Of a stretch of DNA of 64,000 nucleotides, positions 12,901 to 61,592 are shown one piece after another. The notes below the pieces were generated by a model, which made no database searches, had not been told where the DNA came from, and saw nothing but the letters and a program-made list of their open reading frames with translations. A program made the position numbers and the translations under genes. This DNA comes from Mobula hypostoma (Eukaryota). The DNA is taken from NCBI RefSeq assembly GCF_963921235.1, contig NC_086097.1:169138001-169202000 (forward strand), read 5' to 3'. Position 1 is the stretch's first letter, and each line of letters starts with the position of its first letter.

Positions 12901-13763
12901 AGTACTCATTATAATAAAGTAATAGTATTTTCAGGAGTATTTGTGATAGCAAAATGTCTTGCCAATCTTACAACAGTGCGATACTTTCTGTTATATTTGT
13001 GAGAAGTATGCATTTAAATCTCAAAGACAGAGCGTGACTCCTGTTATTAAGAAAGCCTATGAGCTCTACTTTGGGTGTAAAATTGGCAACCAAGACTAAG
13101 CCTGAGCTCCTCACATTTGTTGTTCAACATGCGCTGTTGATCTTAGAGCCTGGCTCAGAGGTACTCGGAAGTCAATGCCACTCGTAGTCCTGAAGATATG
13201 GTGAGAGCAGAAGGATGATGAGATAGACTGCTTCTTCTGTCTGACCAGTGTGTATGGTTTCTCTGCTAAAAACAACAAATCCATTGATTACCCCAATGAC
13301 CCTTCTGCCAAGAGACCTGTGCCACATGATGATAGTCTTCCAGTACCGAAGACACCAGAGACATGGAGTCGAGAGGAGGCAGACGAAGATACACGAGCCA
13401 GGAATTGAAAATGACAACAATACTAACTGATAGATTTTGAACCCTTTATGTTGAGTAAGCCTCATCTGATAACTCAATCTGAGTTAAATGACCTGGTCAG
13501 AGACTTTGGTTTGTCAAAGGCAAAAACAGAATTACTGGGTCCAAGACTGCAAGGATGAAATCTGCTATCACCAGGCACAAAACTTGCCATCTTTCTCAGT
13601 TACTAAGAAGATATGACGCAATTCTTTGGGCAGGTTGATAATCTGTGTTTCTGTACTGACGTTAGTGGCTTTTGACTTCTTTGGGTTGCCAGCATGACCC
13701 ACAACAATGCCATATTTTTATTGATTCTTCAGTGTTAAGCCTGAAAGCTATGCTTTCCGATTT

Positions 13764-13965
13764 GCACTGCTGTCTGATTTGCAAATGAAACAACTTGGTG
13801 TATGCGAGCTGCATTCCTGTAGCAATGCTACTTCTTTCAGATTATCACAGATGTCCCAGTTGTAGTTGCTGTACTTATTACATACACTCTCTGTGGAGAT
13901 CGGCTGCAGAGGTTTCCCAGCCAAATCAGCATGTTGGTTGTTGTCAGATCTGAGCCTGGACAAAA
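13764..13965 (-). repeat. Inverted two-segment copy of 14305-14382 plus 14482-14605
   Basis: Reverse complement matches those two blocks, joined without the intervening 99 bp. Confidence 0.9.
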
Positions 13966-14057
13966 CGGCAATGTCCACCCTTCAATACTAATCGTCTATG
14001 CAGTACACATGAAAAAAAACACTACTGAAATTTGGAAGTCTTGTTGAAACACATATT

Positions 14058-14465
14058 CTCCAGTTACCTTATAAGGTAACCGTAGCCTTCAGCCAGAAGC
14101 AGATGTCATTAGGTGGTTCCCAACCTTCACCGAGTGTTTCGACCCTTAAGTACAACAGTCTCCAGTTGGTGGGCAGGCAGTGGTGGCCAAATCACTGCCC
14201 ATCTGCTCCTGGCTTCCAGCTTCCCTCCTCTCGCCTACTCCAAATCCAACAAGAGGCTCGTTCTGCCTCTTCCCCCATCCTATGAGCTGCTTGTTTTTTG
14301 CTCCTTTTGTCCAGGCCCAGATCTGACAACAACCACCATGCTGATTTGGCTGGGAAACCTCTGCAGCCGATCTCCACAGAGAACCACCATGCCTGCCATC
14401 CCTTGTCTTTACACTCCTGCACTTAGAGCTGGTACTTCAAGGCCTTTCTCTCGTGGGCCTCTGGA
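14058..14465 (-). mobile_element. HERO-like (RLE-type) non-LTR retrotransposon, 3' fragment
   Basis: EAHERKALKY...GWQAWWFSVEIGCRGF...EEAERASCWIW, the C-terminus of a restriction-like endonuclease, followed by a 3' UTR. Confidence 0.75.
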
Positions 14466-16034
14466 GAATGCACCCTAACAGGTGTATGTAATAAGTACAG
14501 CAACTACAACTGGGACACCTGTGATGATCTGAAAGAAGTAGCATTGCTACAGGAATGCAGCTCGCATACACCAAGTTGTTTCATTTGCAAATCGGACAGC
14601 AGTGCTAAAGAACCTCTTTACATTAAAAAGGACAGGCCACTCCATAACCAGTTGGTTCCAGGGCAGAAAAGTGTGGCACATAAGCCACTTATAGACCCAA
14701 AAAAGATATTTTTGCATCCTCTTCATATAAAACTGGAGCTCATAAAAAATCTGTGAAAGCGATGAATAAGGAAGTTGAAGGATTTTGATATCTAAGACAG
14801 ATAATTCCCAAAATAACTGGTGCCAAGAATAAGGAAGGCATTTTTGTTGGTCCACAAGTCAAACAGATCACCAATGACAGGCATTTTGAAGTACTTCTAA
14901 TGGGACTGGAGAAAATTGGAGGGAAGGCATTCAAGGATGTTGTTGAAAATTTTCTTGACAACTAGAGCACCAAGCTGTATGCAGCTGGTTGACAAATTGT
15001 TTCAAGCATACAAAACCATGAAGTGATGAAGTGCAACATGTCACTAAAGAATTATTTCCTGCATTCCCATTCAGACATCTTCGATGCAAATCTTGGCGCT
15101 ATCAGTGATGAGCATGGTGAAAGATTTCAATAGGACACTGCAGTCATGGAGAAACAGTATCAGGGCAACTGGAATCCATCAATGCTGGCAGATTATTGTT
15201 GGACACAGTGAGAATCGGCGGACACTGAGTACAAACAAAAATCATCAACAGAATATTTTTAGCTTAGTTGAACTATTGCAAACTGTCAGCACTGTTATGC
15301 AATTAAATGCATTATATTCAATAAACGTTAATTCCATGTTTCTCCAGATGCCTACTTGATACAAGTAGTCTGAAATTATATTTGTGTTCAGCTTTAAAGG
15401 GTCTATCATAACTACAAAAGAATTCTGAGGAAGCAACACTTTTGAAAAAATTTATTGTCCGGTGCAATAATTTTGAATGTGACAATGAAAATGAAGATTT
15501 GATGGATACAATCATCAAAAGCATTGTATGAAGGCAGCCCATCATCTACACTAGGTGTCTGCTAATTTTGTTAATTTACAGTGTACACTGGATTAATTCT
15601 TCCATCAACAACTATTAGGAACTATTACACAGTTTCATAGTACTATAGTAGTATTTATAGTGTTCTAATTTGCTCTGTATTTCATTTAAATACATAATTT
15701 GTTACTCAGTTAAAAAGTAGTTTGCCTTTTTTTATTTACCTTTTTAACTATTTCCATGAAACTTCGGTTAATTGGTGCAGGTGCTTAATTGGACCAAAAT
15801 ATACTGGTCGGGATGTGTCCCTATGCACTGTATTCCCACAAGCCTTCTTTTGGGTGGCAGAGGTTTCCGATTTGGGAGCCAGCACAAATCATTTGGGAAG
15901 TGAAAACTGGTATTTGCAGAAAGTGAATGTTAAGTCTGAAGACACAATGCCAAACCACAGGTTGTTTTACTCTGGTGGTGTCAAGCTTCTTGGTTGTTAC
16001 AGAGACAGAATTTGCTGCAGGTACTGCACCTAGA

Positions 16035-16182
16035 GTGAAGAAACAAACTACTGGAGAGACTCAGCAGGTCATGCATTATGGAGGCAGGAATTGATGCAGG
16101 GTCTTGACCCAAAATATCAACTATCCCTTAGCCTCCACAGATGTTGCCTAACCTGCTGAGTTCCTTCAGCAGTTTGTTTTCT
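16035..16182. mobile_element. Miniature inverted PLE pLTR derivative
   Basis: aaacaaactactggagagactcagcagg is inverted against cctgctgagttccttcagcagtttgttt, around a decayed hammerhead. Confidence 0.6.
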
Positions 16183-22194: not shown

Positions 22195-22985
22195 GCTACA
22201 ACTGTATAAGGAATGAAGGAATGGGCCAAACTGTATTTGGAGTATTGTGAGCAGTTTTGGGCCCATATCTAAGAATGGATGTGATTTATTTCCCAGCTCT
22301 TTACTTCACCCCTCCTTCTCCCGGTTTCACCTATCACCTTGTGTTTCTTCCTCCCCTCCCCCCACCTCCTTACTCTGAATCCTCTTCTTCTTTCCTCCAG
22401 TTCTGATGAAGGGTCTTGGCCCAAAATATCGACAGTATGCTGAGTTCCTCAAGCATTTTGTATGTGTTGCTTGGATTTCCAACATTTGCAGATTTTCTCC
22501 TGTTTGTGAAGGATGTGCTGGCATTGGAAAGGGTCCAGATGTGGTTTACAAGCATGATCATGGGAATGAAAAGGTTAAAGTATAATGAGCATTTGATGAT
22601 GCCTGGCTTGTATTTGCTGGAGTTTAGAAGAATTGAGGAGGGGATCTCATTAAAACCTACCAAATATTAAAAGGCCTAGATATAGTGAGTCCTCTGGTCC
22701 TAGATTCAGAATGCAAGCACATCCCTTTAGAACAGAGATGAGCAGGAATATCTTTACCCAGAGGGTGGTGAATCTGTGGAACTCATCGCCACAGTTAGCT
22801 ATGGAAGCCACATCATTTAAAGCCGAGGTTGATAGGTTCTTGAATAGGAATGGTGTCAAAGGTTATGGGAAGAAAGCAGTAGGAGAGTGGGGTTGAGAAG
22901 GAAAAAAGCAGCCAGAATCAAATGGTGGAGCAGACTTAATGGGCTGAATGGCCTAAATCTGCTCCTATGCCTTATGGTGTTATGC
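22195..22985 (+). mobile_element. CR1 3' end interrupted by a PLE pLTR (about 22284-22509)
   Basis: The CR1 frame resumes after the insert; ggatgtg is duplicated at the insert borders; hammerhead-like ctgatgaagggtcttggccc near 22403. Confidence 0.8.
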
Positions 22986-23317: not shown

Positions 23318-24229
23318 TAAGGAAGAGAACATTTGCAGATGCTGGAAATCCGAGCAATACACACAAAATGCTGGAGGAACTCAGCAGGCCAGGCAGCATC
23401 TATGGAAAAAAGTACAGTCAATGTTTTGGGTCCAAATCCTTCGGCAGGACTGGAGAGAAAAAAAGCTGAGGAGTAGATTTGAAAGATGGGGGCGGGGGGG
23501 GGGAAGAGAAATGCCAAGCGATAGGTGAAATTTGGAGGGACAGGGATGAAGAAAGAGCTAGGAAGTTGATTGGTGAAAGAAACAAAAGGCCATGGGAGAA
23601 AGAAGAAAGTGGGGAGAGGAGACCTAGAGGGAGGTGATGGGCGGGCAAGGAGATAACATGACAGAGGGACAAGGGGATTGGAAATGGTGAAGGGGGGAGG
23701 GTGGAGGCCAGAACAAGTGTGATCTCCCAGTGGCCACCCATTTCCATTCCAATACATCCATCCATAGCCTCCTCCACTGTCAGGATAGGGACACACTTAG
23801 GTTGGGAGAACAACACCTTATATTCCGTTTCGGTAACCTCCAAACTGATGGCACGATCATCAATTTCTCCAACTTCCGATAATGCCTCTATCCTGCCCCC
23901 TTCACCATTTCCTATCCCCTTGTCCCTCTCTCACGTTATCTCTTAGCCAGCCCATCGCCTCCTCTGGTACTCCTCCGCCCACCCCCCTTTTCTTCTTTCT
24001 TCCATGGCCTTCTGTCTCTTTCACCAACCAACTTCCTAGCTCTTTGCTTCATCCCTACCCATCCAAGTTTCACCTATCACCTGGCGTTTCTCTCTATCCT
24101 ACCCCCACCTTTCAAATCTACTCCTCAGCTTTTTTCCTCCAGTCCTTCGGCCCAAAACGTTGACTGTACTTCTTTCCATAGATGCTGCCTGGCCTGCTGA
24201 ATTCCTCCAGCATTTTGTGTGTGTTGTTA
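23318..24229 (+). mobile_element. Penelope-like element with inverted 5' pLTR
   Basis: Minus-strand pLTR at about 23320-23700, then GIY-YIG C-terminal relic (LGWENNTL in the ORF track) and a plus-strand pLTR; 11-bp TSD tgttaaatata at 23307-23317 and 24230-24240. Confidence 0.85.
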
Positions 24230-24624: not shown

Positions 24625-25799
24625 GAGTGGTCCCCAACCACCGGGCCACGAGGAAACAATATGATTTGATGATATGAAACGATATGAGTCAGCTGCACCT
24701 TTCCTCATTCCCTGTCATGCACTGTTGAATTTTAACGCGCGCGAGGTCATCAGTGACCCAAGACATGCAAAGGAATAGGTCTGTGGCCCATTTGTGAATG
24801 TCCCCAGAGAATCATCCATGTCAGCGCGGGAAGAAGATCAACTCCTCGAGTTTGCAAATGACGGCGGGCTGAAAAGTATGTTTGACATAACATCTCTGCC
24901 AGCATTCCGGATCAAAGTCAAGGCTGAATATCTTGAGATAGCCACGAAATCACTGAAAACGTTGCTTCCATTTCCAACATATTTCTGCGAAGCGGAGTTT
25001 TCTGCAATGAATGCAACGAAAACTAAATTGCGGAATAGACTGGACATAAGGACCCTTCGAGTATCGCTGTCTCCCATCACCCCTCGATGGCATCATCTTG
25101 TTGCAGGGAAACAAGCCCAGGGCTCCCACTGGTTCAGCGATATTGGTATGTTGCAATGATTTTATATGTTCATACAAGGAAAATATGCGCTGTGTGTTTA
25201 ATATCCAAACGTTACTTAAAATGTTATGATGCTATTAACTTATAAGTGACTTATAATTCAGTGGTCCATAACCTCCGGGCCGCAAAGAATACCGTACAGC
25301 GGTGGCCGGAACACACCCAGCACATCTTTAAGAAAAAAGCCGAAATAAACAAGCTAATTAATTAGGTGCCGCCCAGCACGTAAATGTCGGCCCAGATCAG
25401 AGACGATTGCCGATTGCGTCGTCTCTGATCTGGGCGGACATTTACGTGTCAGGCAGCACCTAATCAATTAGCTTGTTTATTTCGGCTTTTTTCTTAAAGA
25501 TGTGTTGGGTGCATTCTTGCTACAGCTGTACCGCTGCATTCTTCGCGGCCCAGAGGTTTGGGACCACTGTTATAATTGACTTATCACTACATTCATGCGA
25601 GGAAAATATGCGCTGTGTGTTTAATATTAAATTCGTTAGATAAACCCCTTTAGAAATGAAATTGAGTGTATTAGCCACTTACAAGTGACGTATAGTTGAC
25701 TAATTACCTATATTCTGGTCGTGTTTAACACCCCCCACCACCCCCCGTCAGGTGGTCCGCAAGAATATTGTCAATATTAAACCAGGCTGGGGGCCCCTG
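24625..25799 (+). mobile_element. hAT (Charlie-like) deletion derivative
   Basis: ORF 24794-25159 with LLPFPTYFCEAEFSAM..KTKLRNRLD (hAT dimerisation domain); TIR-like ends gagtggtccccaacc / ggctgggggcccctg. Confidence 0.8.
25259..25569. mobile_element. 311-bp palindromic hAT MITE
   Basis: cagtggtcc...ggaccactg with near whole-length self-complementarity; perfect 8-bp TSD ttataatt at 25251-25258 and 25570-25577. Confidence 0.92.
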
Positions 25800-28700: not shown

Positions 28701-29691
28701 TTTCCCTTTAAAGAAACCATGCTGACTTTGATTTATTTTATCATTAATCTCCAAGTACCCCGAAACGTGATCCTTAATAATAAACTCCAACACTTTCCCA
28801 ACCACTAAGGTTAGGCTAACTGGCCTACAATTTCCTTTCTTTTGCCTTCCTCCCTTCATAAGAGATGGAATAACATTTGCAATCTTCCAGTCCTCCGAGA
28901 CTATGCCAGAATCAAGTGACTCTTAGAAACATAGAAAACCTACAGCACAATACAGACCCTTTGGCCCACAAAGCTGGCTGAACATGTCCTTACCAGAGAA
29001 ATTACCTGAGGTTACCCATAGCCTTCTATTTTTCTGTCCAGGAGTCTCTTAAAAGACCCTATCGTATCCACCTCCACCACCGTCGATGACAGCCCATTCC
29101 ACACACTCACCACTCTCTGCGTAAAAAACTTACCCCTGACATCTCCTCTGTAACTACTTCCAAGCACCTTAAAACTGTGCCCTCTCATGTTAGCCATTTC
29201 AGCCCTGGGAAAAAGCCTCTGACTATCCACACGATCAATGCCTCTCATCATCTTATACACCTCTATCAGGTCACCTCTCATCCTCCGTCACTCCAAGGAA
29301 AAAAGGCTGAGTTCACTCAACCTATTCTCACAAGGCATGCTCCCCAATCCATGCAACATCCTTGTAAATCTCCTCTGCACCCTTTCTATGGTTTGCACAT
29401 CCTTCCTATAGTGAGGTGACCAGAACTGAGCACAGTACTCCAACTGGGGTCTGACCAGTGTCCTATATAGCTGCAATATTACCTCCCGGCTCCTAAACTC
29501 AATCCCACGATTGATGAAGGCCAATGCACCATATGCTTTCTTAACCACAGAGTCAACTTGCGCAGCAGACTTGAGTGTCCAATGGACTCAGACCCCAAGA
29601 TCCCTCTGATCCTCCACACTGCCAAGAGTCTTACCATTAATACTATATTCTGTCATCATATTTGACCTATCAAAATGAACGACTTCACACT

Positions 29692-30357
29692 TAAGCAACA
29701 CACATCAAAGTTGCTGGTGAACACAGCAGGCCAGGCAGCATCTCTAGGAAGAGGTACAGTCGACGTTTCGGGCCGAGACCCTTCGTCAGGACTAACTGAA
29801 GGAAGAGCTAGAAAGAGATTTGAAAGTGGGAGGGGGAGGGGGAGATCTGAAATGATAGGAGAAGACAGGAGGGGGAGGGATGGAGCCAAGAGCTGCACAG
29901 GTGATTGGCAAAAGGGACATTAGAGGATCATGGGCCAGGAGGCCCAGGGAGAAGAAAAAGGGGGAGGGGGGGAAAAACCCAGAGGATGGGCAAGGGGTAT
30001 AGTTAGAGGAACAGAGGGAGAAAAAGGAGAGAGAGAGAAAGAATGTGTGTATATAAATAAATAACGAATGGGGTACGAGGGGGAGGTGGGGCATTAGCGG
30101 AAGTTAGAGAAGCCAGTGTTCATGCCATCAGGTTGGAGGTGACCCAGGCGGAATATAAGGTGTTGTTCCTCCAACCTGAGTGTGGCTTCATCGTTACAGT
30201 AGAGGAGCCTGTGGATAGACATATCAGAATGGGAATGGGACGTGGAATTAAAATGTGTGAGATGCTGCCTGGCCTGCTGCGTTCACCAGCAACTTTGATG
30301 TGTGTTGCTTGAATTTCCAGCATCTGCAGAATTCCTCGTGTTTGCGTTTTTAATTTC
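29692..30357 (-). mobile_element. Penelope-like element (GIY-YIG C-terminus and pLTR) with inverted 5' pLTR and tail
   Basis: HFNSTSHSHSDMSIH.LL...LRLEEQHLIFRLG.LQPDGMN on the minus strand; inverted pLTR piece at 30260-30350; 10-bp TSD acttcacact at 29682-29691 and 30358-30367. Confidence 0.9.
29758..29793 (-). ncRNA. Minimal type I hammerhead ribozyme in a PLE pLTR
   Basis: Minus strand reads AGTC-CTGACGA-A-GGGT CTCG GCCC-GAAA-CGTC^GACT: intact core, stems I and II, loopless palindromic stem III. Confidence 0.8.
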
Positions 30358-31755: not shown

Positions 31756-31919
31756 CTCTTTACTCTTTATATAACTGAAAAATCTTTTAGTATTCTGCTT
31801 TATACTACTGGCCAGTCTCATATTTCAACTTTTCCCTTCTTATAGCTTTTTAGTTGCTTTTTGTTGGATTTTAAAAGCTTCCCAATCATCCAATTTCCCA
31901 CTCACTTTACTACTATATA

Positions 31920-33538
31920 CTGTGGCATGCAAAAGTTTGGGCACCCGTGGTCAAAATTTCTGTTATTGTGAATCACTAAGCGAGTAAAAGATGACCTGAT
32001 TTCCAAAAGGCATAAAGTTAAAGATGACACATTTCCTTAATATTTTAAGCAAGAAAACTTTTTTATTTCCATCTTTTACAGTTTCAAAATAACAAAAAAG
32101 GAAAAGGGCCTGAAGTAAAAGTTTGGGCACCCTGCATAGCAGTACTTAGTAACACCCTCTTTGGCAAGTATCACAGCTTATAAACGCTTTCTGTAGCCAG
32201 CTAAGAGTCTTTCAATTCTTGTTTGGGGGATTTTCGCCCATTCTTCCTTGCAAAAGGCTTCTAGTTCTGTGAGATTCTTGGGCTGTCTTGCATGCACTGC
32301 TCTTTTGAGGTCTATCCACAGATTCACGATGATGTTTAGGTCAGGGGACTGTGAGGGCCATGGCAAAACCTTCAGCTTGCGCCTCTTCAGGTAGTCCACT
32401 GTGGATTTTGAGGTGTGTTTAGGATCATTATCCTGTTGTAGGAGCCATCCTCTTTTCATCTTCGGCTTTTTTACAGACGGTGTGATGTTTGCTTCCAGAA
32501 TTTGCTAGTATTTAATTGAATTCATTCTTCCCTCTACCGGTAAATGTTTCCCGTGCCACTGGCTGCAACACAAGCCCAAAGCATGATCGATCCACCCCCG
32601 TGTGCTTAACAGTTGGAGAGGGGTTCTTTTCATGAAATTCTGCACCCTTTTTTCTCCAAACATACCTTTGCTCATTGCAGCCAAAAAGTTCTATTTTAAC
32701 TTCATCAGTCCACAGGACTTGTTTCCAAAATGCATCAGGCTTGTTTAGATGTTCCTTTGAACCTTTAGAATAGAACTTTTTTGGCCGCAATGAGCAAAGG
32801 TATGTTTGGAGCAAAAAGGGTGCAGAATTTCATGAAAAGAACCCCTCTCCAACTGTTAAGCATGGGAGTGGATTGATCATGCTTTAGTCTTGTGTTGCGG
32901 CACGGGGAACATTTACTGGTAGAGGGAAGAATGAATTCAATTAAATACCAGCAAATTCTGTAAGCAAACATCACACCGTCTGTAAAAAAGCCAAAGATCT
33001 AAAGAGGATGGCTCCTACAACAGGATAATGATCCTAAACACAACTCAAAATCCACAATGGATTACCTCAAGAGGCTCAAGCTGAAGGTTTTGCCATGGCC
33101 CTCTCAGTCCCCCGACCTAAACATCATCGAAAATCTGTCAATAGACCTCAAAAGAGCAGTGCATGCAAGATGGCCCAAGGACCTCACAGAACTTAGAAGC
33201 CTTTTGCAAGGAAGAATGGACGAAAATCTCCCAAACAAGAATTGAAAGACTCTTAGCTGGCTACAGAAAGTGTTTACAAGCTGTGATACTTGCCAAAGGG
33301 GGTGTTACTAAGTATTGACCATGCAGGGTGCCTAAACGTTTGCTTCGGGCCCTTTTCCTTTTTTGTTATTTTGAAACTGTGAAAGATGGAAATAAAAAAG
33401 TTTTCTTGCTTAAAATATTAAAGAAATGTGTCATCTTTAACTTCATGCCTTTTGAAAATCAGTTCATCTTTTACTCACTTAGCTATTCACAGTAACAGAA
33501 ATTTTGACCACGGGTGCCCAAACTTTTGCATGCCACTG
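31920..33538. mobile_element. Fold-back Tc1/mariner element made of two inverted 3' halves
   Basis: TA|ctgtggcatgcaaaagtttgggcacc ... ggtgcccaaacttttgcatgccactg|TA; QQDNDPKH and WPSQSPDLN encoded on both strands; IR/DR-type inner repeat near 32117. Confidence 0.95.
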
Positions 33539-35039
33539 TATGCCCTTTCCTTGGCTTTTATGTAGTCCTTAACTTCCCTTGTCAGCCATGGTTGTCGACC
33601 CCTGCTATTTGAGAACTTCTTTCACTCTGGAACATATCTATCCTGCACCTTGTGAACTATTCCCAGAAACTTCAGCATCTCTGCTCTGCCGTCATCCCCA
33701 CCAGTATTCTCTCCTCCAGTCGACCTGGACAAGCTTCTCTCTCATGCCTCTGTAATTCCCTTTATTCCATTGCAATACTGATACATGTTACTTATGCTTC
33801 TCCCTCTCAAATTACAGTATGAATTCAATCATATTGTGATCACTGCCGCCTAAGGATTCCTTTACATTAAGCTCTTTCTAAAGATGTAATTCCATCTCTT
33901 ACCAAGAGAACCACACCACTGCCTATGCCTTCCTTTCAATATGAAGTATACCCTTTGATGTTAAGCTCTCAACTATGGTCTTCTTTCAGCCAAGCCTTAG
34001 TTATGCGCACAACATCATACTGACCAATCTCTAGCTCTGCCACGAATTTGTCCACCTTATTCCAAATGCTACACACATTTAATACAGCACCTTCAGTCCT
34101 GCCTTCTTTGCCCTTTTGAATTTCACCTCTGTGGTACAATTTAACTCTTTGCTCTATCTGCATTTGTACCAAATCATTGGCTTCTTTCTTACATTCATTT
34201 AACACCTATCATCTAGATGTAAATCTGCTGCTTCATCCTCAGCTCTATCATACTGGTTCCCATCCCCTGTCATATTAGTTTAAACCACTCCCAACAGTTC
34301 TAGTTCAAAATTGCCCATGAGAATATTGGTCCTCCTCGGATTCAAGTTCAACCCTTCCCTCTTGTACAGGTCACAGCAGCCCCAGAAGAGGTCCCAGACG
34401 TCTAGAAATCTGAATCCCTAGTCCCTGCTTGAATTCTTCAGTCACGCATTTATCTGCCACCTCATTCTATTCCAATCCTCACTGTCACATGGCACAGGCA
34501 GCAATCCTGACAATACTACCCTTGAGGTCCTGCTTCTCAGCTTCCTTCCTAATTCCCTGTATTCTGTTTTCAGGACCTCCTCCCTTTTTCCACCTATGTC
34601 ATTGGTACCAATATGTAACACGACTTCTGGCTGTCCACCTTCCCTTTTCAGGATATTGTGGACACATTCAGAAACATCGTGGATCCTGGCACCCACGAGG
34701 CAAACTACCATCCATGTTTCTTTTTCGCATCCACAGAGTTGCCTATCTGTCCCCCCTAACTATAGCGGTCCCTATTACTGCTGCCATCCACTTCAGTTCC
34801 CTCCCCTTCTGAGCTACAGGGCCAAAGGCATGGCTGCTCTTATGACATTGAAAGGTGGAAATAAGTGAATCCGTGTAAAAGATCAGTGGAGAGAAAACAT
34901 TCTCCAAGATAGTGGTGGAGGAATTCAAAATTAAATGAGACCCATGTGTCAATTTGTTATGGAATCACGCAAGGTCAAAAATCACCTGCTTCCACTCTGT
35001 TTCTGCAGATTCGGGGATGGTTGATATGGGATCTGCAGT

Positions 35040-38729: not shown

Positions 38730-38825
38730 CTGAAGAAGGGTCTCGGCCTGAAATGTTGATTGTTTATTCATTTCCACAGATGCTGCCTGACCTGCTGAGC
38801 TCCTTCAGCATTTTGAGTGTTGCAT
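38730..38825 (+). mobile_element. PLE pLTR fragment starting at the hammerhead core
   Basis: ctgaagaagggtctcggcctgaaatgttg...gatgctgcctgacctgctgag. Confidence 0.7.
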
Positions 38826-39374
38826 TTTTTCATAATTTATTTTTGAAATTTATAGTAATTTTCATCTTTTCATTGTATTGCTGCCACAAAACAAATTTCA
38901 TGTCATACAAGCCACTGATAATAATTTTGATTCTGATTTTGAAGTTCTCAACAAGTCCAGCAGCATCACACAGTTAATGTTTTGGGTCAATACTCTTCGA
39001 TCAGAAAATTTCTGTAATTTTTTTACAGTACTGTTGGGGAGGCATCTCAATTGTTTATTATTAAGAATATTGATACTGAGGAGATGGAGTGTAGATTTGA
39101 CTGGCACCTTGTGTGCCTCTGTTAGAGGTGGAGGGAAGAGACACCTTATATGTATCATAGGCTTTGTCCTGATTTATTTATTTTAAATAGTTATTCACTG
39201 CTAATTGCATAGATTTCAATGTCTCATAAAAGTAGTTTTATCTAAAATATTGCCTTTTCTAAACATTTAAATAAGATTTTTCATGTTAGATGTTAACTGA
39301 TTTTTTCAAATATATTTTGTTTTAATTTTTTAAAACAAGTGACAGAATGGGTAATTATACATGACATCAAACTG

Positions 39375-39820: not shown

Positions 39821-40046
39821 CAATTGTATTGCCCAGTATACACTATCTACACAGGTTATCCACTTTGAACCCAACAAGAATAAAGACTCCTCCTGCCCCA
39901 ATGTTTTTCTCTTCTTTCCTCTCCCATTGGACAGAAGATACAAAAGCTTGGAGCACATTCCACCAGATTCAAAGACAGCCTTTATCTCACTGTTAGCAGA
40001 CTTGAGTGGACCTCTTGTATGCTGTAGATGAACTAGTCTATCTCGA

Positions 40047-40439
40047 ACAACAGGAATTCTGCAGATGCTGGAAATTCAAGCAACACACATCAAAGTTGCT
40101 GGTGAACGCAGCAGGCCAAGCAGCATCTATAGGAAGAGGCGCAGTCGACGTTTCAGGCCGAGACCCTTCGTCAGGACTAACTGAAGGAAGAGTGAGTAAG
40201 GGATTTGAAAGCTGGAGGGGGAGGGGGAGATGCAAAATGATAAGAGAAGACAGGAGGGGGAGGGATGGAGCCGAGAGCTGGACAGGTGATAGGCAAAAGG
40301 GGGATACGAGAGGATCATGGGACAGGAGGTCCAGGAAGAAAGACAAGGGGGGGGTGACCCAGAGGATGGGCAAGAGGTATATTCAGAGGGACAGAGGGAG
40401 AAAAAGGAGAGTGAGAGAAAGAATGTGTGCATAAAAATG
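40047..40439 (-). mobile_element. Young PLE pLTR insertion
   Basis: Closely similar to 29692-30060; 12-bp TSD agtctatctcga at 40035-40046 and 40440-40451. Confidence 0.9.
40143..40178 (-). ncRNA. Minimal type I hammerhead ribozyme
   Basis: AGTC-CTGACGA-AGGGTCTCGGCCT-GAAA-CGTC^GACT. Confidence 0.75.
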
Positions 40440-40604
40440 AGTCTATCTCGACATGGCTCTTATTTTGTTCACTTTCACTGCACTTTCTCTGTATCTGTAA
40501 CACTACATTCTGTTTTCCTTTAAACTTTTGAAAATGCTGAAAATATTGAAATTTGGGGATTCATGTACATAGATCTTTAAAATCTCAGGGATGGGGTTAA
40601 AAAA

Positions 40605-40980: not shown

Positions 40981-41749
40981 AAAGGCGACACAATGTTAAC
41001 GTTGAGACTGAAGTACAGGGCACTCGAAAGTATACTATTACACAAAGCCTTAGTTAGACTTTGGAGAGTCAAGAGACTGTAGATGATGGAATCAAAGCAA
41101 CAAACAATCTGCTGGATGAACTCAACAAAATTCAGTAGGTCTCTGCCTCTATCTGTGATCCACCAGCCACAGTCTTCTAACTCCAGTCCCACTTATCTCC
41201 TCAACCTGGCACCACCTGCCTGACATCTTACACCTCACAGATGCTGCTCAGCCCACTGAGTTCCTCCAGCAGATCGTGTGTTGTTTGGTTAGACTTGAAG
41301 TATTGTGAATAGTTCTGGGTAAAATTTAATGGTAATAAAGTAGTCATTACACTGCTTTCAATTTAAATCTAATAAAATGAGATCTGGACTCCAAAAGTTA
41401 AAGTTCAAAAAAGGTATTCCAAACTTGATACTGAGAAGATTACAGAGTATTTGAATAATTTTTTACAATATTTGAAGGAAAACTGAAAAGCAAGTTACAA
41501 AGAAACCATTTCTGCTGATATGAGGAGTTAAAGACCAAAGAGCTCATTAAAAAATCAGAATAAAGGTTTTCTGCAATGAAGATTTGAAAAAAAAAACTTC
41601 TTCACACAGAAGGCAGTAGAAACTTATACATCTTCCATAATCGTCCATTGACGCTGGATCAAATGTTACAGAATTTTGTTCACCAAAGAGAGGAAGGATC
41701 TAACCTTGCACAGCATTACTGAAACATTGCTGCAATAAGGAAGAATGCA

Positions 41750-46949: not shown

Positions 46950-47880
46950 TTCTGTATTGTGTGCAGTTCTGGTTGGCTAGCTGTATGAAGGGTGTCATTG
47001 AGTTGGAAAGGGTGTAGAAAAGATTTACAAGGATGTTGCCAGAACTGGGAGGCTTGAGTTATAAGAGACTGCAGCTGTTTTTTTTTTCCCCTGGCTTGCA
47101 GGAGACTGAAGGATGACCTTATAGAACTTATAATATAATAAGGGGCATAGATAAGATGAATGGTCACAATCTATATCCCAGAGTTGGAGAGAGTAAAAAC
47201 TGAGTTTTAAGCTGAAAGTGGAAAGATTTAAAGGGACTCTGAGGAATAGCTTTCTCACATGGAGGCTGGTGGGTACATGGAATGAGCTGGCAGAGGAAGG
47301 TAAGGGCAGTTGATGTTGTGCCAACTTTTTAACCTACTCCAAGATTAATCCTTATCTCCACTTAGTCATCATTTTTCTTTCTTCCATGTACCTAGCTAAG
47401 AGTTTCTTAAATGTCCCTAAGGTATCTACCTCTACCATCACCCCTGGCAGTGTGTTCCACATATAGTACCTGCCACTCTCTGTGTAAAAAACCTGCCACT
47501 GACATCATACCTATACTTTCCTTTCATCGCATTAAATTATGCCGTCTTGTATTAGCCATTCCCGATTGAGGAACATGGTGCACTGGCTGTTCATTTTACC
47601 TATGCCTCTTATCATCTTATATATCTGTATCAATCACATTTCATGACATTTAGACAAGCAGATGGATTGGAATGGTTAGAGGGATATGAGGCAAGTGATT
47701 CTAGCTCAAGTACTGATTAAGGGTCTCAGTCCAAAATGTTGACTGTTTATTCCTTTCGACAGATGCTGCCTGACCTAGTGAGTTCCTTCAGTACTTTGTA
47801 TGTGTTACCTGGATTTCCAGCATCTGCACAATATCTTGTGTTTATGATCTAGCTCAATAGGCAACTTGATCACATGGATG
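46950..47880. mobile_element. Mosaic of a plus-strand CR1 3' end, a minus-strand CR1 (about 47305-47640) and a PLE pLTR (about 47710-47850)
   Basis: CR1 motifs on both strands; decayed hammerhead ctgattaagggtctcagtccaaaatgttgactg. Confidence 0.7.
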
Positions 47881-50689: not shown

Positions 50690-51270
50690 ATGGTAGAGTC
50701 AAAAAAGAACTGCTCGAGAAACCCAGCAGGTCATCCAGCATCCATGGAGTGAGAAGGATAGTGATGTTTTCCACACCCACTGTCCACGTCCCTCCATAAA
50801 GGTACCTGATTCACTGGGTTCCCCAAACATCTCTTTTATTTGTTCCAGATTCTAGCATCTGATTCCAACATGTGATGGCTCTGGACCTTTACTCATTGGA
50901 GTTTAGAAGAATAAGGGGACATCGCATTGAAACTTACCGAAAATTGAAAGGGCTGGAGAGAGTGGATGTGCAGAGGATGTTTTCGTAGTGAGCGAGTCAA
51001 GGACCAGAGGGCACACTCTGGTTAATAGTGTGATGAGGAGGCAGCTTCTATGAAGGGAATAAACAGTTGACATTTCATGCTGAGATCAGCTTATGTTCCT
51101 TCCCCTCCCCCACCTTCTTATTCTGGTTTCTGCCTTCTACCTTTCTAGTCCTGATCAAGGGCCTCAGCCCAAAATGTCGAGTTTATTCCCCTCCCTGATG
51201 TTGCCTGACTCGTGAGTTCCTCCAGCATTTTGTGTGTGCTGCTCAGTATCGCCAGCATCTGCAGACTTAG
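50690..51270. mobile_element. Two small inverted PLE derivatives around a CR1 fragment (about 50870-51020)
   Basis: pLTR motifs in both orientations; agtcctgatcaagggcctcagcccaaaatgtcga near 51147. Confidence 0.6.
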
Positions 51271-51848
51271 CTCTGTGAGTCTGCTGTGTCATTCAGTTAG
51301 AGATGTGCATTGGTTCCATAATCAATGAGAATATTCCCATCAAAAAAACTATCAATCTCAGTTATAAACATTCGTATTGACTGAGCACTGTCGTCAAGAA
51401 ATTGAGATTGCATATAGTGTATCCACGGGTTAAGGATGTCACTAGTATTACTAGGTGGATTTTTGCAAAATCTGGGAACTTCATGTTCACTGTTACTCTT
51501 TAACTCTTCACTTAACACTTTTTTTTTTAATCCAGTTTTATTTAATTAACTGAGTTCAAATTCATCAAATGCTATGGTGGGATTTGAAGTCATCTTCCTC
51601 AGTCAATAATCTAGCACTCCATAAATCAGTCTAGTAACTTAATACATTATGATACCATACCCTGCAGTTTCCTGCTTGCCTTTAGTTTCACAATTATGGC
51701 CCCTCATTCTTAATTGCTCCATTAAAAGAAATAATTTCTTTGCATTTACCCCTGATGTTAAACACCTTAATATCATTAGACCTTACCCTTTCAAACTTTT
51801 CATAATTACCATCAGAAATTATTAAAAACAAATCAACCAGAATCAGAA

Positions 51849-51980
51849 AACACACACAAAAATGCTGGTGAACGCAGCAGGCCAGGCAGCATCTTTAGGA
51901 AGAGGTACAGTTGACGTTTCGGGCCAAGACCCTTCGTCAGGACTAAAATTTCCAGTATCTGCAGATTTCCTCGTGTTTGC
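51849..51980 (-). mobile_element. 132-bp hammerhead-only PLE derivative
   Basis: Minus-strand hammerhead and pLTR end plus an inverted tail of about 34 nt; aatcagaa flanks at 51841-51848 and 51981-51988. Confidence 0.8.
51909..51944 (-). ncRNA. Minimal type I hammerhead ribozyme
   Basis: AGTC-CTGACGA-AGGGTCTTGGCCC-GAAA-CGTC^AACT; core intact, one stem I mismatch. Confidence 0.7.
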
Positions 51981-53197
51981 AATCAGAATCAGGTTTATTA
52001 TCACCGGCATGTGTCATGAAATTTGTTAACTTAGCAGCAGCAGTTCAATGTAATACATAATATAGAAGAAAAAAAAGTAAATCAATTACAGTATACGTAT
52101 AATGAATAGATTAAAACCTGTGCAAAAACAGAAATAATATATATTAAAAAAGTGAGGTAGTGTTCACAGAATCAAAGTCCATTTAGGAATTGGGTGGCAG
52201 AGAGGAAGAAGCAGTTCCTGAATCATTGAGTGTGTGCCTTCAGGCTTCTGTATCTCCTACCTGATGGTAACAGTGAGAAAAGGTCATGCCCTGGGTGCTG
52301 GAGGTCCTTAATAATGGACACTGCCTTTCTGAGACACTGCTCCTTGAAGATGTCCTGGGTACTTTGTAGGCTAGTACCCAAGTTGGAGTCAACTAAATTT
52401 ACAACCCTCTTTCGGTCCTTTGCAGTAGTCCCCTTCCCTCCTACCCAGACAGTGATGCAGCCTGTCAGAATGCTCTCTACAGTACATCTATCGATGTTTT
52501 TGAGTGTTTTTGTTGACATACCAAATCTCTTCAAATTCCTAATGAAGTATAGTCATTGTCTTGCCTTCTTTATAACTGCATCGGTATGTTGGGACCAGGT
52601 TAGATCCTCAGAAATCTTGACACCCAGGAACTTGAAACTGCTCACTCTCTCCACTTCTGATCCCTCTATGAGGATTGGTATGTGTTCCTTCATCTTACCC
52701 TTCCTGAAGTTCACAATCAGCTCTTTTGTCTTACTGACGTTGAGTGCCAGGTTGTTGCTATGACACCACTCCACTAGTTGGCATATCTCGCTCCTGGACG
52801 CCTTCTCATCTCCAACTGAGATTCTACCAACAATAGTTGTATTGTCAGCAAATTTATAGATGGTATTTGAGCTATGGCTAGCCATACAGTCATGTGTATA
52901 CAGAGAGTAGAGCAGTGGGCGAAGCACACATCCCTGAGGTGCACCAGTGTTGATCATCAGTGAGGAGGAGATATTATCACCAATCCACACAGATTGTAGT
53001 CTTCCGGTTAGAAGGTTGAGGATCCAATTGCAGAGGGAGGTACAGAGGTCCAAGTTCTGTAACTTCTCAATCAGGATTGTGGGAATGATGGTGTTAAATG
53101 CTGAGCTCTGGTCGATGAACAGCATCCTGACGTAGGTGTTTGTATTGTCCAGGTGGTCTAAGGCTGTGTGAAGAGCCTTTGAACTTGCGTCTGCCGA
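51981..53197 (-). mobile_element. Rex1/Babar LINE, RT to 3' end
   Basis: ORFs 52553-53125 ([24 protein letters not shown]) and 52223-52534; (aatcag)n tail. Confidence 0.92.
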
Positions 53198-55100: not shown

Positions 55101-55642
55101 TAATTATTCTCATAGAAGGAAGAACTTAACATCCTATTTTAATGCACCTTTGTCCTCTTGAGTTGCTTTAAAGCAATACCTTGGAAATTCCTAGAAACCC
55201 AGGAGCATTCCAAAAAGATGGCAATTCCACATGATACAAAATAAAAAGGGTGCAGTTAGATTGCAAATTATTTACTGTCTAGTTTTTTTTTTACAGTTGT
55301 ATTGTACACTTTTTTTTCTTGAACTGGTAGTGTCCAGTTTCCCACTACAAAATTTGCTCAGAAATATCGTGTGGTGATAACTACGTTTTGTGACCTGTCG
55401 TTAAAGCAGAAATCCTACAAAGAGGAAAAATTGTAAAATAGGCATGATTTTAATACAGTTTCAGAATAGGAACAGTGTAAGATGAAACAATAGATGATAG
55501 CTGTTAAAAAAAAAAGGTTCTCTAACAGTTGCTACTGGATATTGTATTAATGTAGATGTAAACAAAATATGTAGCTGAAGTATTTCATGAGTCATTAGGA
55601 GATTTTCATTTTCAGTGTGGCTGCAAAAATTAAATTTGCTTT

Positions 55643-55746
55643 AGTATTCTGGAAGATATATCGTAGAATACATTTGAGGCTATTTTCTAGTTGGCTTAAG
55701 TATTCTGGAAGATATATCGTAGAATATATTTGAGGCTATTTTCTAG
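55643..55746. repeat. Tandem duplication, period 56 bp
   Basis: 55643-55690 and 55699-55746 are identical except for one C/T. Confidence 0.9.
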
Positions 55747-58399: not shown

Positions 58400-61300
58400 C
58401 TGTACCAATTTTGTCTGTCAGAGGAGGAGTTTAAGATTAGACCTCAAACCCAGCACAAAGCTCTTGCTATACCAAGCAGCAGTGATCCCTGCTCTCTTGC
58501 TTCTGATACATGGACTGCTTACAGCAGGCTCCTCAGACTACTAGTGGGTGCTACCATAACACTGTCTCCATAAAATCCATCAAATCCAAGGCCGGAGGAG
58601 CAACTCAATGTCAGCATCCTCTCCCAACATAAAGCCCATAATTTCAGTCAGCTCTGACGGATGGGCCATGTTGCTTGTATGTCAGACCCATGAAACAATA
58701 ATCTGTTCAGAACTCTTTAACAGTAAACACTACCAAGGTAAGTTCCCACAATAAGTTCTCCACAACTACTTTGTCAAGTGCATGCACCACTGCATTGTGA
58801 ATTCACTCGACTGCTGGGCGAATTACCAGACCTCACAAAGCCCACATACTCCACTATAGTCACAAAACATGGGGTTAAACACCACATTCCCACAACTGGC
58901 CCACCTGTCCATGCCCGCATGTGTAGATTGCACCCAGAAAAGCTAGCAACCGTGAAGGCTGAGTTGTCCAACAAGGAAAGACTTGGAATCGTACACCAGT
59001 TGAATAACCCCTGGGCTTCACTCCTTCATATGGTCCCTAAGTTTGATGGTGGTTGCCATCCACTGATGATTACCGTTGTCCTAACGAGGCCACCGCCCCC
59101 CGATTGTTACCCGGTACCATACATTCAAGACTCTTAGCCCGAATGTTAATTTTTTTTTCCAAAATTGATCTAGTTAGGGGCTACCATCAGGTGCCTGTGT
59201 GCTTGGAGGACATTCACAAAACAGCTGTGATAACCCCATTTGGCTTTTCTGAGTTTCAGCGCATGCTGTTCGGACTGAAAATCATAGCACAGACTTTCCA
59301 AAGGCTGGTGGACTCTGTATTAAAAGACTTAGATTTTCTTTTTGTCTACCTGGATGACATCTCTGCACATTTTTCAAGCATTTAAGCCAACACGGGTTGA
59401 TTATTAACCCTGCTAAATACCAGTTTGTGTTGTCAACCATTGACTTTCTCGACCATTGCATCTCCACAGGAGGTGCAAAACTCCTCCTCGTCAAAGTTAG
59501 CCGCTATTATGAATTTCCCACTACCCTGCACTACTAAACAGGAGGTTTTAGGCATGGTGAATTTCATCACCGCTTCATTCTGCTAGCTGCCGAACTTATG
59601 CTCCCCTGTATAGTGCATTTAATACCCCTAATCAAGTGCTTGACTGGTTAGCGGACATGACCAGGGCACTTGATGATACCAAATGAGCTCTTTCTCATGC
59701 AACTCTACTGGCGCACCTGCTCCCCAATGCACCCATAGCCATTACTACTGACGCCCCAGACCATGCTGTGGGTGCCAGGCATGAACAGCTGTCCGGAGGC
59801 GTTTGGCAGCTGCTTGCCTTCTTCAGTTGGCAGCTCCGTTCTCCCGAAAGAAAGTAGAGCATGTTTGACCTTGAGCTTCTCACTCTCTATCTGGCTGTCT
59901 GCCACTTCACAGCATTCATTGACCGCAATCCCCTCATGCATGGGGCTAGCCAAAGTATCACGGCAGCATGCATGGCAGCGACGCCACTTGGCCAACATAT
60001 CCAAGTTCACAACTGATGTACAACATATCAAGGGGAAAAATAATGCCACGGCCAATCCCTCTCACAGGCAGCTATTGAGGCCATACTCATAGTGGTGGAC
60101 AATGCTGGCACGGTAGCTGACGAACTTATTGACCCAGAGGTCCAAGCTTACCAAACAGCAGTCATGGGCCTGCGGTTGGCTAACATTAAGTTCAGGGAAG
60201 CTGGGGTTTCTTTCCTGTGCAATATCTCAAGCAGTTGTCCTCGCCCCATCAAGTCCACAAAATGGAGGTGGACAGTTTTTGACACCATACATGGCCTTTC
60301 ACATCCGGGCCAGAAGGTCTCACAGAAACAGGTTGTACTAAAGTTTGTTTGGCATGGCCTCAAAAAGGACGTGCATGATTGGATTGCAGCTTGTGTGCAA
60401 AAATTAACCTTCATGTTCAAGCACCATGGGCACCTTTTGAGGTCCCTGAGTGATAGTTTGACCATGTCAATGTGGACCTTGTTGGTCCTCTTCTCCTCTC
60501 CCATAGTTTCACACTACTTCTAACCATAGTGGACTGTACCACCAGGTGGCCAGAGGTTGTCTCTCTAGTATTGATGACAGCCTCAGATGAGGCTTAGGCG
60601 TTCATCAGCACCTGTGTTGCTCAGTTTGGCAGCCCATCTGATGTTTCCTCTGACCGCAGTCCTCAGTTCACTTCAGACCTCTGGGCTGTGACGGCCCAGC
60701 TCAGAACCATAGTGTCAGGATAAAACACACCACAGCATATCACGCGCAGTCAAATGGTCTACGCGAGCAGTTTCACTGCTTCCTTGACCAATGAGTGCTA
60801 GCATGATTGCTCCGTGGATCCTTCTGGGTCTTAGAACTGCTCCAAAAGAAGATCTCCATTCGTCCTCCACCAAGTTGGAATATGGGCAGCTGTTACGAGT
60901 GCCAGGTAGGTGACTTAATTCCTGTTGTCACGACCACCTGGACAGCCTCTCAACAGCGTTCCACCATCTTCGGTAAATTCAATTTCTTTTCACCTATTCC
61001 TACCACCCATCATGGTGTACAGCATTCTTGGGTCCTTGTTTGTTTTTATCCACCATGACGCACACCAACATCTCCATAGGCCCCCTTACAATGGCCCGTT
61101 CTACGTTTCGCATCAGGGAGAAAATACTTTTATGATTGATAAGAGGGGTAAACCTGAAAATATTTTAGTAGATCTCTTTAAACTAGCCTACCAAGATTTG
61201 GAGAATTCCACTGCCATGGCCCTGGCGTCACAACGTGACCATGAGCATGTCAATGCACCTCTGGACGAGCCAAAGGCACCTGTGTTTCCATCACCCATAG

Positions 61301-61592
61301 ACAAGGACCCGAATCAGGCAGCTCGTCTGAGCTCAGTACAGACTCACAATGCCGGTTTTAGTGAATTTTAGGATGCCTGTATACGGTAACGTAATTGGGA
61401 GAAATGTACATCATTCACAACCACACACATTGAGTTGACGTTTTGCTTTAAGAGTCTGGTCTGACATGATTACATTTTTACGTAAGGATTTTTTAGCATA
61501 CTTTTGTGTTTAGATTTTGGAGTTCAATAAAATGTGTAATGGGTTTCGTTAAACATAAAGCACCTCACTTCATTTTATTTGCATTAACCCAC
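58400..61592 (+). mobile_element. Gypsy/Ty3 LTR retrotransposon pol relic, with a probable 3' LTR at about 61378-61592
   Basis: Domain order RT (SKIDLVRGYHQVPV, YLDDI), RNase H (TTDAPDHAVGA, VQHIKGKNN), integrase (HGLSHPG, VDLVGP, SSDRSPQFTS, TTAYHAQSNG) and PPYNGPF; many stops and frameshifts. Confidence 0.9.

Follow-up and report, generated by a model that had tools for sequence, protein, structure and literature searches.

A 132-nt Penelope-like insert in a ray genome and a preference of 5' ends for the upstream edge of the hammerhead motif

The window studied here, a stretch of 64,000 nucleotides from Mobula hypostoma (contig NC_086097.1, positions 169,138,001 to 169,202,000), is repeat-rich vertebrate DNA, and its nearest named proteins are those of rays (Mobula, Hypanus). 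At 51849-51980 it carries an insert of 132 nt, flanked by AATCAGAA octamers at 51841-51848 and 51981-51988 (both plus strand). Nucleotides 1-98 of the insert (51849-51946, minus strand) are the reverse complement of the pLTR of a Penelope-like element (PLE), and match 29697-29795 with 93% and 40082-40180 with 90% identity in blastn. This inverted arm is truncated at the 5' end and has no tail of its own, its 3' end lies 5 nt before the position where the tail would begin. The remaining 34 nt (nucleotides 99-132, 51947-51980, plus strand) match the tail at 30312-30345 in forward orientation with 94% identity, and their length falls in the 30-40 bp range of Penelope-type tails given in the available text of Craig et al. 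2021 (PMC8557442) and Frangieh et al. 2024 (PMC11167929). In long copies the arm and the tail have the same orientation and are adjacent, 5 nt apart; in the insert they are joined at their 5' ends by a blunt junction with no common letters. Local alignment put the 5' start of the arm 2 nt 5' of the A in the stem-I AGUC of the hammerhead motif (position -2). The first-pass annotation had described a 132-bp insertion composed of a hammerhead, the pLTR end and an inverted tail between repeats, starting just 5' of stem I, and the coordinates and the start agree with that description.

A LINE on the minus strand ends in an (AATCAG)n tail, within which the right flanking repeat lies; this tail was the target. 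Taken as a single element, the LINE fragment would span 51981-53197; it contains a piece of a reverse transcriptase ORF (52553-53197, RVT_1, E 2.5e-18) and its 3' end aligns with 38868-38938. Because the target is an (AATCAG)n tail, a duplication of 8 bp and one of 2 bp inside the 6-nt microsatellite fit the sequence equally well. Two other PLE copies (22290-22509 and 29691-30346) interrupt LINE fragments and carry flanking repeats of 7-12 bp, the repeat of the latter being 10 bp long, and repeats in the same range are found at the copies 40042-40444 and 23325-24226. The duplications of this family are thus usually longer than 2 bp, and this speaks for the 8-bp reading at the insert. Two PLE mini-pieces (in 38868-39006 and 51849-52053) abut the (ATTCTG)n tail of one LINE family, and the ATT beside the 3' end of both is a possible target preference.

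The window holds other mobile sequences as well. The broken ORFs at 58742-61371 resemble a Gypsy-type LTR retrotransposon, and the ORF piece at 24779-25159 resembles the C-terminus of a hAT transposase. Three long, young inverted-repeat structures (31917-33541, 13761-14608 and 25294-25531), whose arms are 88-98% complementary, are probably non-autonomous DNA transposons or foldback elements, and a 56-nt unit occurs twice in tandem, 96% alike, at 55638-55746.

A profile of the window copies of the PLE matched 21 pieces in the 64 kb and none in the reversed window. Tailed and tail-less ends both occur among these copies, and the profile search found inverted pairs at 16044-16176, 23325-24226, 29691-30346, 41077-41288 and 51039-51270. 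The unit at 29691-30346 (656 bp) belongs to the same subfamily and has the same layout as the insert: an inverted arm of about 567 nt, which includes the end of an ORF, is followed by 86 nt in forward orientation with the tail. The ORF end of this copy is 76-87% identical to five ray proteins, and a sixth match is 59% identical. The ray proteins that match it carry the RT-type YIDD motif; three of the six gave GIY-YIG matches at E-values (5e-4 to 2e-3) weaker than Pfam's cut-off, and the 54-aa ORF-end piece alone gave no Pfam match. In this copy the pLTR is continuous with the ORF end; the 34-nt tail of the insert stands at one end only, and there is an inverted, 5'-truncated partner. The ORF end of the copy at 29691, which is 93% identical to the insert's arm, places the element among the endonuclease-bearing (EN+) PLEs, together with its hammerhead, its 34-nt tail and its inverted partners, and the 132-nt insert is, judged by its sequence, a very short, decayed copy of this highly abundant element in the inverted-arm-plus-tail form. 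In the minus strand of 40046-40250, within a simple 5'-truncated copy with tail (40042-40444, minus strand, from profile and alignment), one frame is open from 5' of the hammerhead through the tail, which fits an ORF start overlapping the pLTR.

A minimal type-I hammerhead motif, in the definition found in the available part of Cervera and De la Pena 2014, occupies 51908-51945 on the minus strand of the insert. The motif scan found the core CUGACGA...GAAACGUC at 51940-51913 without a mismatch. Stem I consists of 51945-51941 and 51912-51908, the core of 51940-51934, stem II of 51932-51921 and the GAAACGUC segment of 51920-51913; the predicted cut falls between 51913 and 51912. The subfamily of the insert has CUGACGA, thus a core without AUG. 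Stem II is paired, and stem I pairs at four of its five positions: a G-to-A change at 51912 has turned the C2.1-G1.1 pair adjoining the cleavage site into C-A, which breaks the closing pair of stem I. In 12 window copies the stems pair in 78.7% of the cells, compared with 20-47% when the stems are slid, and the covariation of the stems in these copies is no better than in shuffles (308 of 500). Rfam has no hammerhead match at the insert and one chance-level match in the whole window, hence the motif call relies on the pattern, the pairing and the 2014 description. The predicted folds of the motif were not more stable than those of shuffled sequences, either as RNA (z -0.96, -0.29 and -0.03) or as cDNA, for which the energies were -4.2 to -4.9 kcal/mol (z -0.03 to +0.97). 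According to the available text of Cervera and De la Pena 2014, the minimal hammerheads of PLEs share with our motif the full core, the extra base before stem II, the short stem I, the palindromic 15.2-16.2 and the lack of a loop 3, whereas the motif in the insert has a broken closing pair and no partner. In the same text no cleavage was seen with a single minimal hammerhead.

The combination of an inverted arm and a forward tail is repeated at 29691-30346, 23325-24226, 16044-16176 and 41077-41288. In the available sections of Craig et al. 2021 an adjoining inverted truncated copy and a tail of 30-40 bp are typical of PLEs. EN+ PLE insertions, as described there and in the accessible parts of Schostak et al. 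2008 (PMC2377424), resemble the insert in being 5'-truncated with an adjoining inverted copy, in the one-end 34-nt tail, in the hammerhead in the pLTR and in the GIY-YIG ORF end upstream of the pLTR. They differ in that the size of the insert is extreme, its forward copy being the tail only and its inverted copy 98 nt; the parts of these texts available mention no preference of 5' ends for the stem-I edge. In the available text of Frangieh et al. 2024, the protein of a PLE from the lizard Anolis carolinensis, Poseidon, cuts and extends both target strands in vitro, uses two start sites that bound the tail and prefers ATT; the reaction does not depend on cleavage by the hammerhead, and none of the reads had its end at the cut site. 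The insert is similar in that its ends agree with two tail-bounding start sites and extension on both strands, its target is AT-rich, ATT adjoins its tail end, and cleavage is not required for it. The paper differs in its subject, for it maps start sites and not cDNA ends. We infer from this analogy that the insert would be the smallest kind of product of such a reaction.

The reading that we prefer, with a probability of roughly 0.6, is that the insert is the product of one PLE integration in which both cut target ends primed on the element RNA, and that it is a dead one-off rather than the founder of a mobile family. One target strand would have been primed at the outer start site and would have copied only the 34-nt tail, while the other strand, primed near the inner start site, would have been extended by 98 nt, across the hammerhead; the cDNA ends would then have been joined head to head. 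In twin-primed 5' inversions of L1 an inverted upstream segment and a forward 3' segment lie inside the target duplication with a small deletion at the inversion point, and the insert shares this layout, the small deletion included. L1 synthesis, however, is primed on poly(A) and at internal positions that vary, whereas the inner start of the insert is the fixed tail boundary of the PLE.

The first-pass annotation had offered another origin, namely a non-autonomous mini-element or minimal retrozyme with a fixed structure, mobilised by the PLE protein. It is true that tandem non-LTR retrozymes have been proposed to derive from pLTRs (Li et al. 2026, 10.64898/2026.07.22.740005, in the part available), and that the non-LTR retrozymes of this paper and of Cervera and De la Pena 2020 (PMC7229834, likewise in part) are, similarly to the insert, small, non-coding, pLTR-related and hammerhead-bearing. 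Theirs are, however, arranged head to tail with a hammerhead in each unit and are released as circles, whereas the insert is a single unit with an internal inversion; it has one hammerhead motif, whose closing pair is broken, and there is no tandem array here. One cut site in the insert cannot release a monomer, and a lone minimal hammerhead did not cleave in the available account of Cervera and De la Pena 2014. Moreover, arm and tail point in opposite directions, so that a transcript of either strand lacks the element's normal arm-to-tail order.

In the window the junction was seen a single time and is absent from all the other mini units compared (16044, 41077, 50709, 38730 and 47709), which also speaks against such a family. 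We aligned the contigs of four of 24 listed sequencing runs (X1, X5, X13 and X15) to the copy at 40031-40450 at 85% likeness; 126,973, 66,096, 17,715 and 9,455 contigs aligned, respectively, and X1 and X5 were saturated. The junction, expected as a strand switch 40180-40076, was not among the best 15 of 79 joints, the best 12 of 118 rows of a further table or the best 24 of 1,423 loose ends. Its absence from these best-supported rows argues against an abundant family, in a comparison that had no positive control and in which the focal locus itself did not appear among the rows listed; these rows had depths of at most 102 and at most three contigs, most pieces having about 5-20. The missing control and the two saturated runs leave the mini-element some room, as does a different miniature inverted joint, 40089-40177 at the stem-I edge, which was present in three of the four runs, from three organisms, with 1-2 contigs each, and which is either an old shared insertion or a small family. 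Four pattern scans of viral, metagenome and prokaryote collections gave no further loci. With no second copy of the junction seen in the window or among the rows listed, a single damaged hammerhead without tandem, and a layout that is a published PLE integration product, neither the mini-element family nor the minimal retrozyme is supported, and we regard both as very improbable.

The position at which the arm ends deserves separate consideration. Using local alignments, we set the 5' ends of 20 of the 21 window pieces by hand and counted them from the A of the stem-I AGUC; this is a small sample, one piece with E 0.14 was left out, the values of two old copies are lower bounds and the start of the 41233 piece is uncertain. 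Five of the 20 pieces start between -3 and +6 of stem I, about tenfold more than the 0.48 expected (P 1.4e-4); the excess has P 1.1e-3 when the focal copy is omitted and P 0.015 when any 10-nt window is allowed. The five starts are -2 in the insert; 0/+1 in a short copy with tail (47709-47847, plus strand), where the end is fixed by a target duplication of 9-10 bp; +2 in a decayed mini-copy (38947-39006, minus strand; range +2 to +4 in profile and alignment), which lies beside the tail of the same LINE family that hosts the insert; +4 in a short tail-less copy (38730-38823, plus strand, from motif scan and alignment); and about +5 in the forward arm, at 16092, of an old miniature inverted unit (16044-16176, from profile and alignment). 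They scatter from -2 to +5 and mark no single base. The 40 nt upstream of these starts contain 33-40% pyrimidine, compared with 78-88% in seven long copies, and this drop indicates that the five are true ends. Thus the breakpoints in the window are not uniform along the pLTR, and the preference for the upstream edge of stem I looks real. In the open-licence texts that we searched, taken without their figure supplements, we found no report of PLE 5' ends clustering there.

These placements bear on what had been said earlier about similar units. The miniature inverted units at 16044-16176 and 41077-41288 were recovered as inverted pairs; in the third, at 50700-50860, the minus-strand piece 50709-50769 was scored and the forward tail was recognised by eye. 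Of the two copies thought to start at the ribozyme core, 38730 does so (+4), while 47709 starts at stem I (0/+1).

It is possible to regard the position as incidental, the result of random truncation, joining at a short motif, or an internal deletion that later shortened a longer inverted unit. Copies of all lengths are expected to occur in so abundant a family (21 matches in 64 kb, 126,973 contigs in X1), and four letters at -4 to -7 recur at the inner boundary of the tail, so that joining there with the loss of 3 nt would give the observed junction. Yet the junction is blunt and has no common letters, and the edge is shared by the ends of four further copies in the window, one of which is fixed by its duplication; we consider an incidental position unlikely.

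The clustering at the edge of stem I might instead reflect the reverse transcriptase, which would stall or detach at the ribozyme fold, or the cDNA, which would fold back once stem I had been copied. The predicted stabilities could be exceeded by a protein-bound or dimeric fold, and in the available part of Frangieh et al. 2024 the hammerhead was active only with protein. A stalling polymerase would, however, be expected to stop on entry at the 3' arm (about +32 to +37), and none of the 20 ends lies within 3 nt of the cleavage site. The edge copies have traversed the whole fold, and both the RNA and the cDNA fold are no better than shuffles. The earlier suggestion that reverse transcription preferentially stops at the ribozyme fits poorly with a polymerase that meets the 3' arm first and yet copies the entire, weak fold, and we hold a stall to be even less probable than a chance position. 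Self-cleavage was also considered as the source of the 5' end and was rejected: the cut would fall 3' of the core, which the arm contains, and the 20 ends all keep more than 3 nt away from the cut site. A discrete 5' end of the RNA would fit the edge preference better than a polymerase stall.

The contigs aligned to the 40031-40450 copy are of some relevance here. Loose ends pile up at position 0 (40178) in 518 contigs of X1, 461 of X5, 330 of X13 and 79 of X15; among the piles of loose ends listed for X1 and for X5 this one is the largest, and it is comparable with the tail-end piles in X1, which have 352 and 420 contigs. The loose parts are long (median 56-180) and mixed (agreement 0.39-0.46), in contrast to those at a subfamily edge at 40142 (median 24-41, agreement 0.54-0.59), and in this respect they are more like true ends. 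The consensus of the pile opens purine-rich, like the upstream sequence of another subfamily, which means that part of the pile is not truncation. The pile is a mixture; it agrees with the edge preference but is confounded. Four of the best 12 of 118 rows of the further table and two of the best 15 of 79 joints break at 40174-40178, the letters between being at most three or not known. The summed depth is about twofold lower upstream of the core; the core is common to other subfamilies, depth is no copy number, and the depth profile was left out of the evidence.

Some contigs contain hammerhead units head to tail. The joint 40178-40144 was found in 3, 2, 0 and 1 contigs of the four runs, and there are further joints at 40178-40142, 40177-40140 and 40178-40141, with 1-3 letters between; both ends of these joints are on stem-I edges. 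Such a dimer of the hammerhead unit could form an active two-copy fold.

At the same edge there is a sequence signal. A pyrimidine tract with CAG stands directly 5' of the position that corresponds to the breakpoint of the insert (29796-29815, minus strand), and resembles a splice acceptor. It overlaps a YYAGTC that is initiator-like. A pyrimidine tract plus YAG is present at the stem-I edge in eight of eight long copies, representing seven insertions, and this pattern is matched at 86 of 127,940 positions. The arm of the insert begins on the first base after the acceptor-like AG, an AG which is partly forced by stem I itself. The acceptor is at -2 in the subfamily of the insert and at +2 in the others, whereas stem I starts at -1/0 in all.

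Evidence for use of the signal in splicing is mixed. Two ray gene models, for a STARD3NL isoform and an unnamed protein (P0007 and P0008), truly contain the pLTR stretch within their coding sequence, suggesting that it may have been exonised; in P0008 the acceptor is the exact point, in phase 1, at which host sequence is joined, while P0007 includes three upstream codons. A second gene-model query gave no match, P0009 was a chance match, and the gene models are weak support for the acceptor. A search upstream in the seven long copies gave no conserved strong splice donor (the best sites agree with 4-6 of 9 consensus positions), and there was no joint with intron-type ends among the best-supported contig rows listed for the four runs. 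In Penelope of D. virilis the 3' end of an intron falls at helix I's 5' end (Cervera and De la Pena 2014, available part), and the intron begins 46 nt after the start site (Schostak et al. 2008, available part). The position of the acceptor-like signal in the ray element matches this intron end, but no donor or intron was found in the ray element.

In the preferred reading of one doubly primed integration, the most likely reason for the end of the longer arm is an RNA template that had its own start at stem I's upstream edge. Three causes may be proposed for such a template end. The one that we favour, giving it about two fifths of the share of the template end, is 5'-to-3' trimming up to a protein-bound ribozyme region. 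Frangieh et al. 2024, in the available text, placed a hypothetical protein-binding region among the ORF's first 172 nt, the ORF itself starting at stem II of the hammerhead, and trimming up to a protein bound there would allow the observed scatter of the ends. The remainder is divided equally, three tenths each, between transcription starting at the initiator-like A, which predicts position 0, and an end linked to the signal resembling a 3' splice site. Against the last stand the lack of a conserved donor in the seven long copies and the duplication-fixed copy at 47709, which includes 1-2 bases of the AG. Normal splicing, moreover, leaves no free 5' end at a 3' splice site.

A more specific proposal, which we put forward tentatively and think rather doubtful, is that ray PLEs make a discrete RNA of about 140 nt, reaching from the hammerhead's upstream edge to the tail, with a 5' end set by a conserved acceptor or initiator signal in stem I. 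Copying to the end of this RNA would be a step like 'strong-stop', and such inserts would be its fossils, by which a step in the processing of PLE RNA could be mapped in genomic DNA alone. What the sequence shows is the anatomy of the insert, its family, the damaged stem and the excess of 5' ends at the stem-I edge in this window; an RNA end would be read here from DNA contigs only.

The element type, the ribozyme, the tail and the inversion have all been published before, and the part of interest is the edge preference together with the acceptor-like signal. As an insert it is inert and of an ordinary kind; its possible importance lies in the breakpoint that it shares with other copies. As the acceptor is at -2 or +2 depending on the subfamily, and stem I at -1/0 in all, the edge preference can be counted in a copy-rich genome. 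Cleavage by the PLE hammerhead is dispensable in vitro, and 5' ends that prefer the upstream edge of the motif, where a conserved acceptor-like signal also lies, suggest that the ribozyme region may mark an RNA boundary in some way other than cutting.
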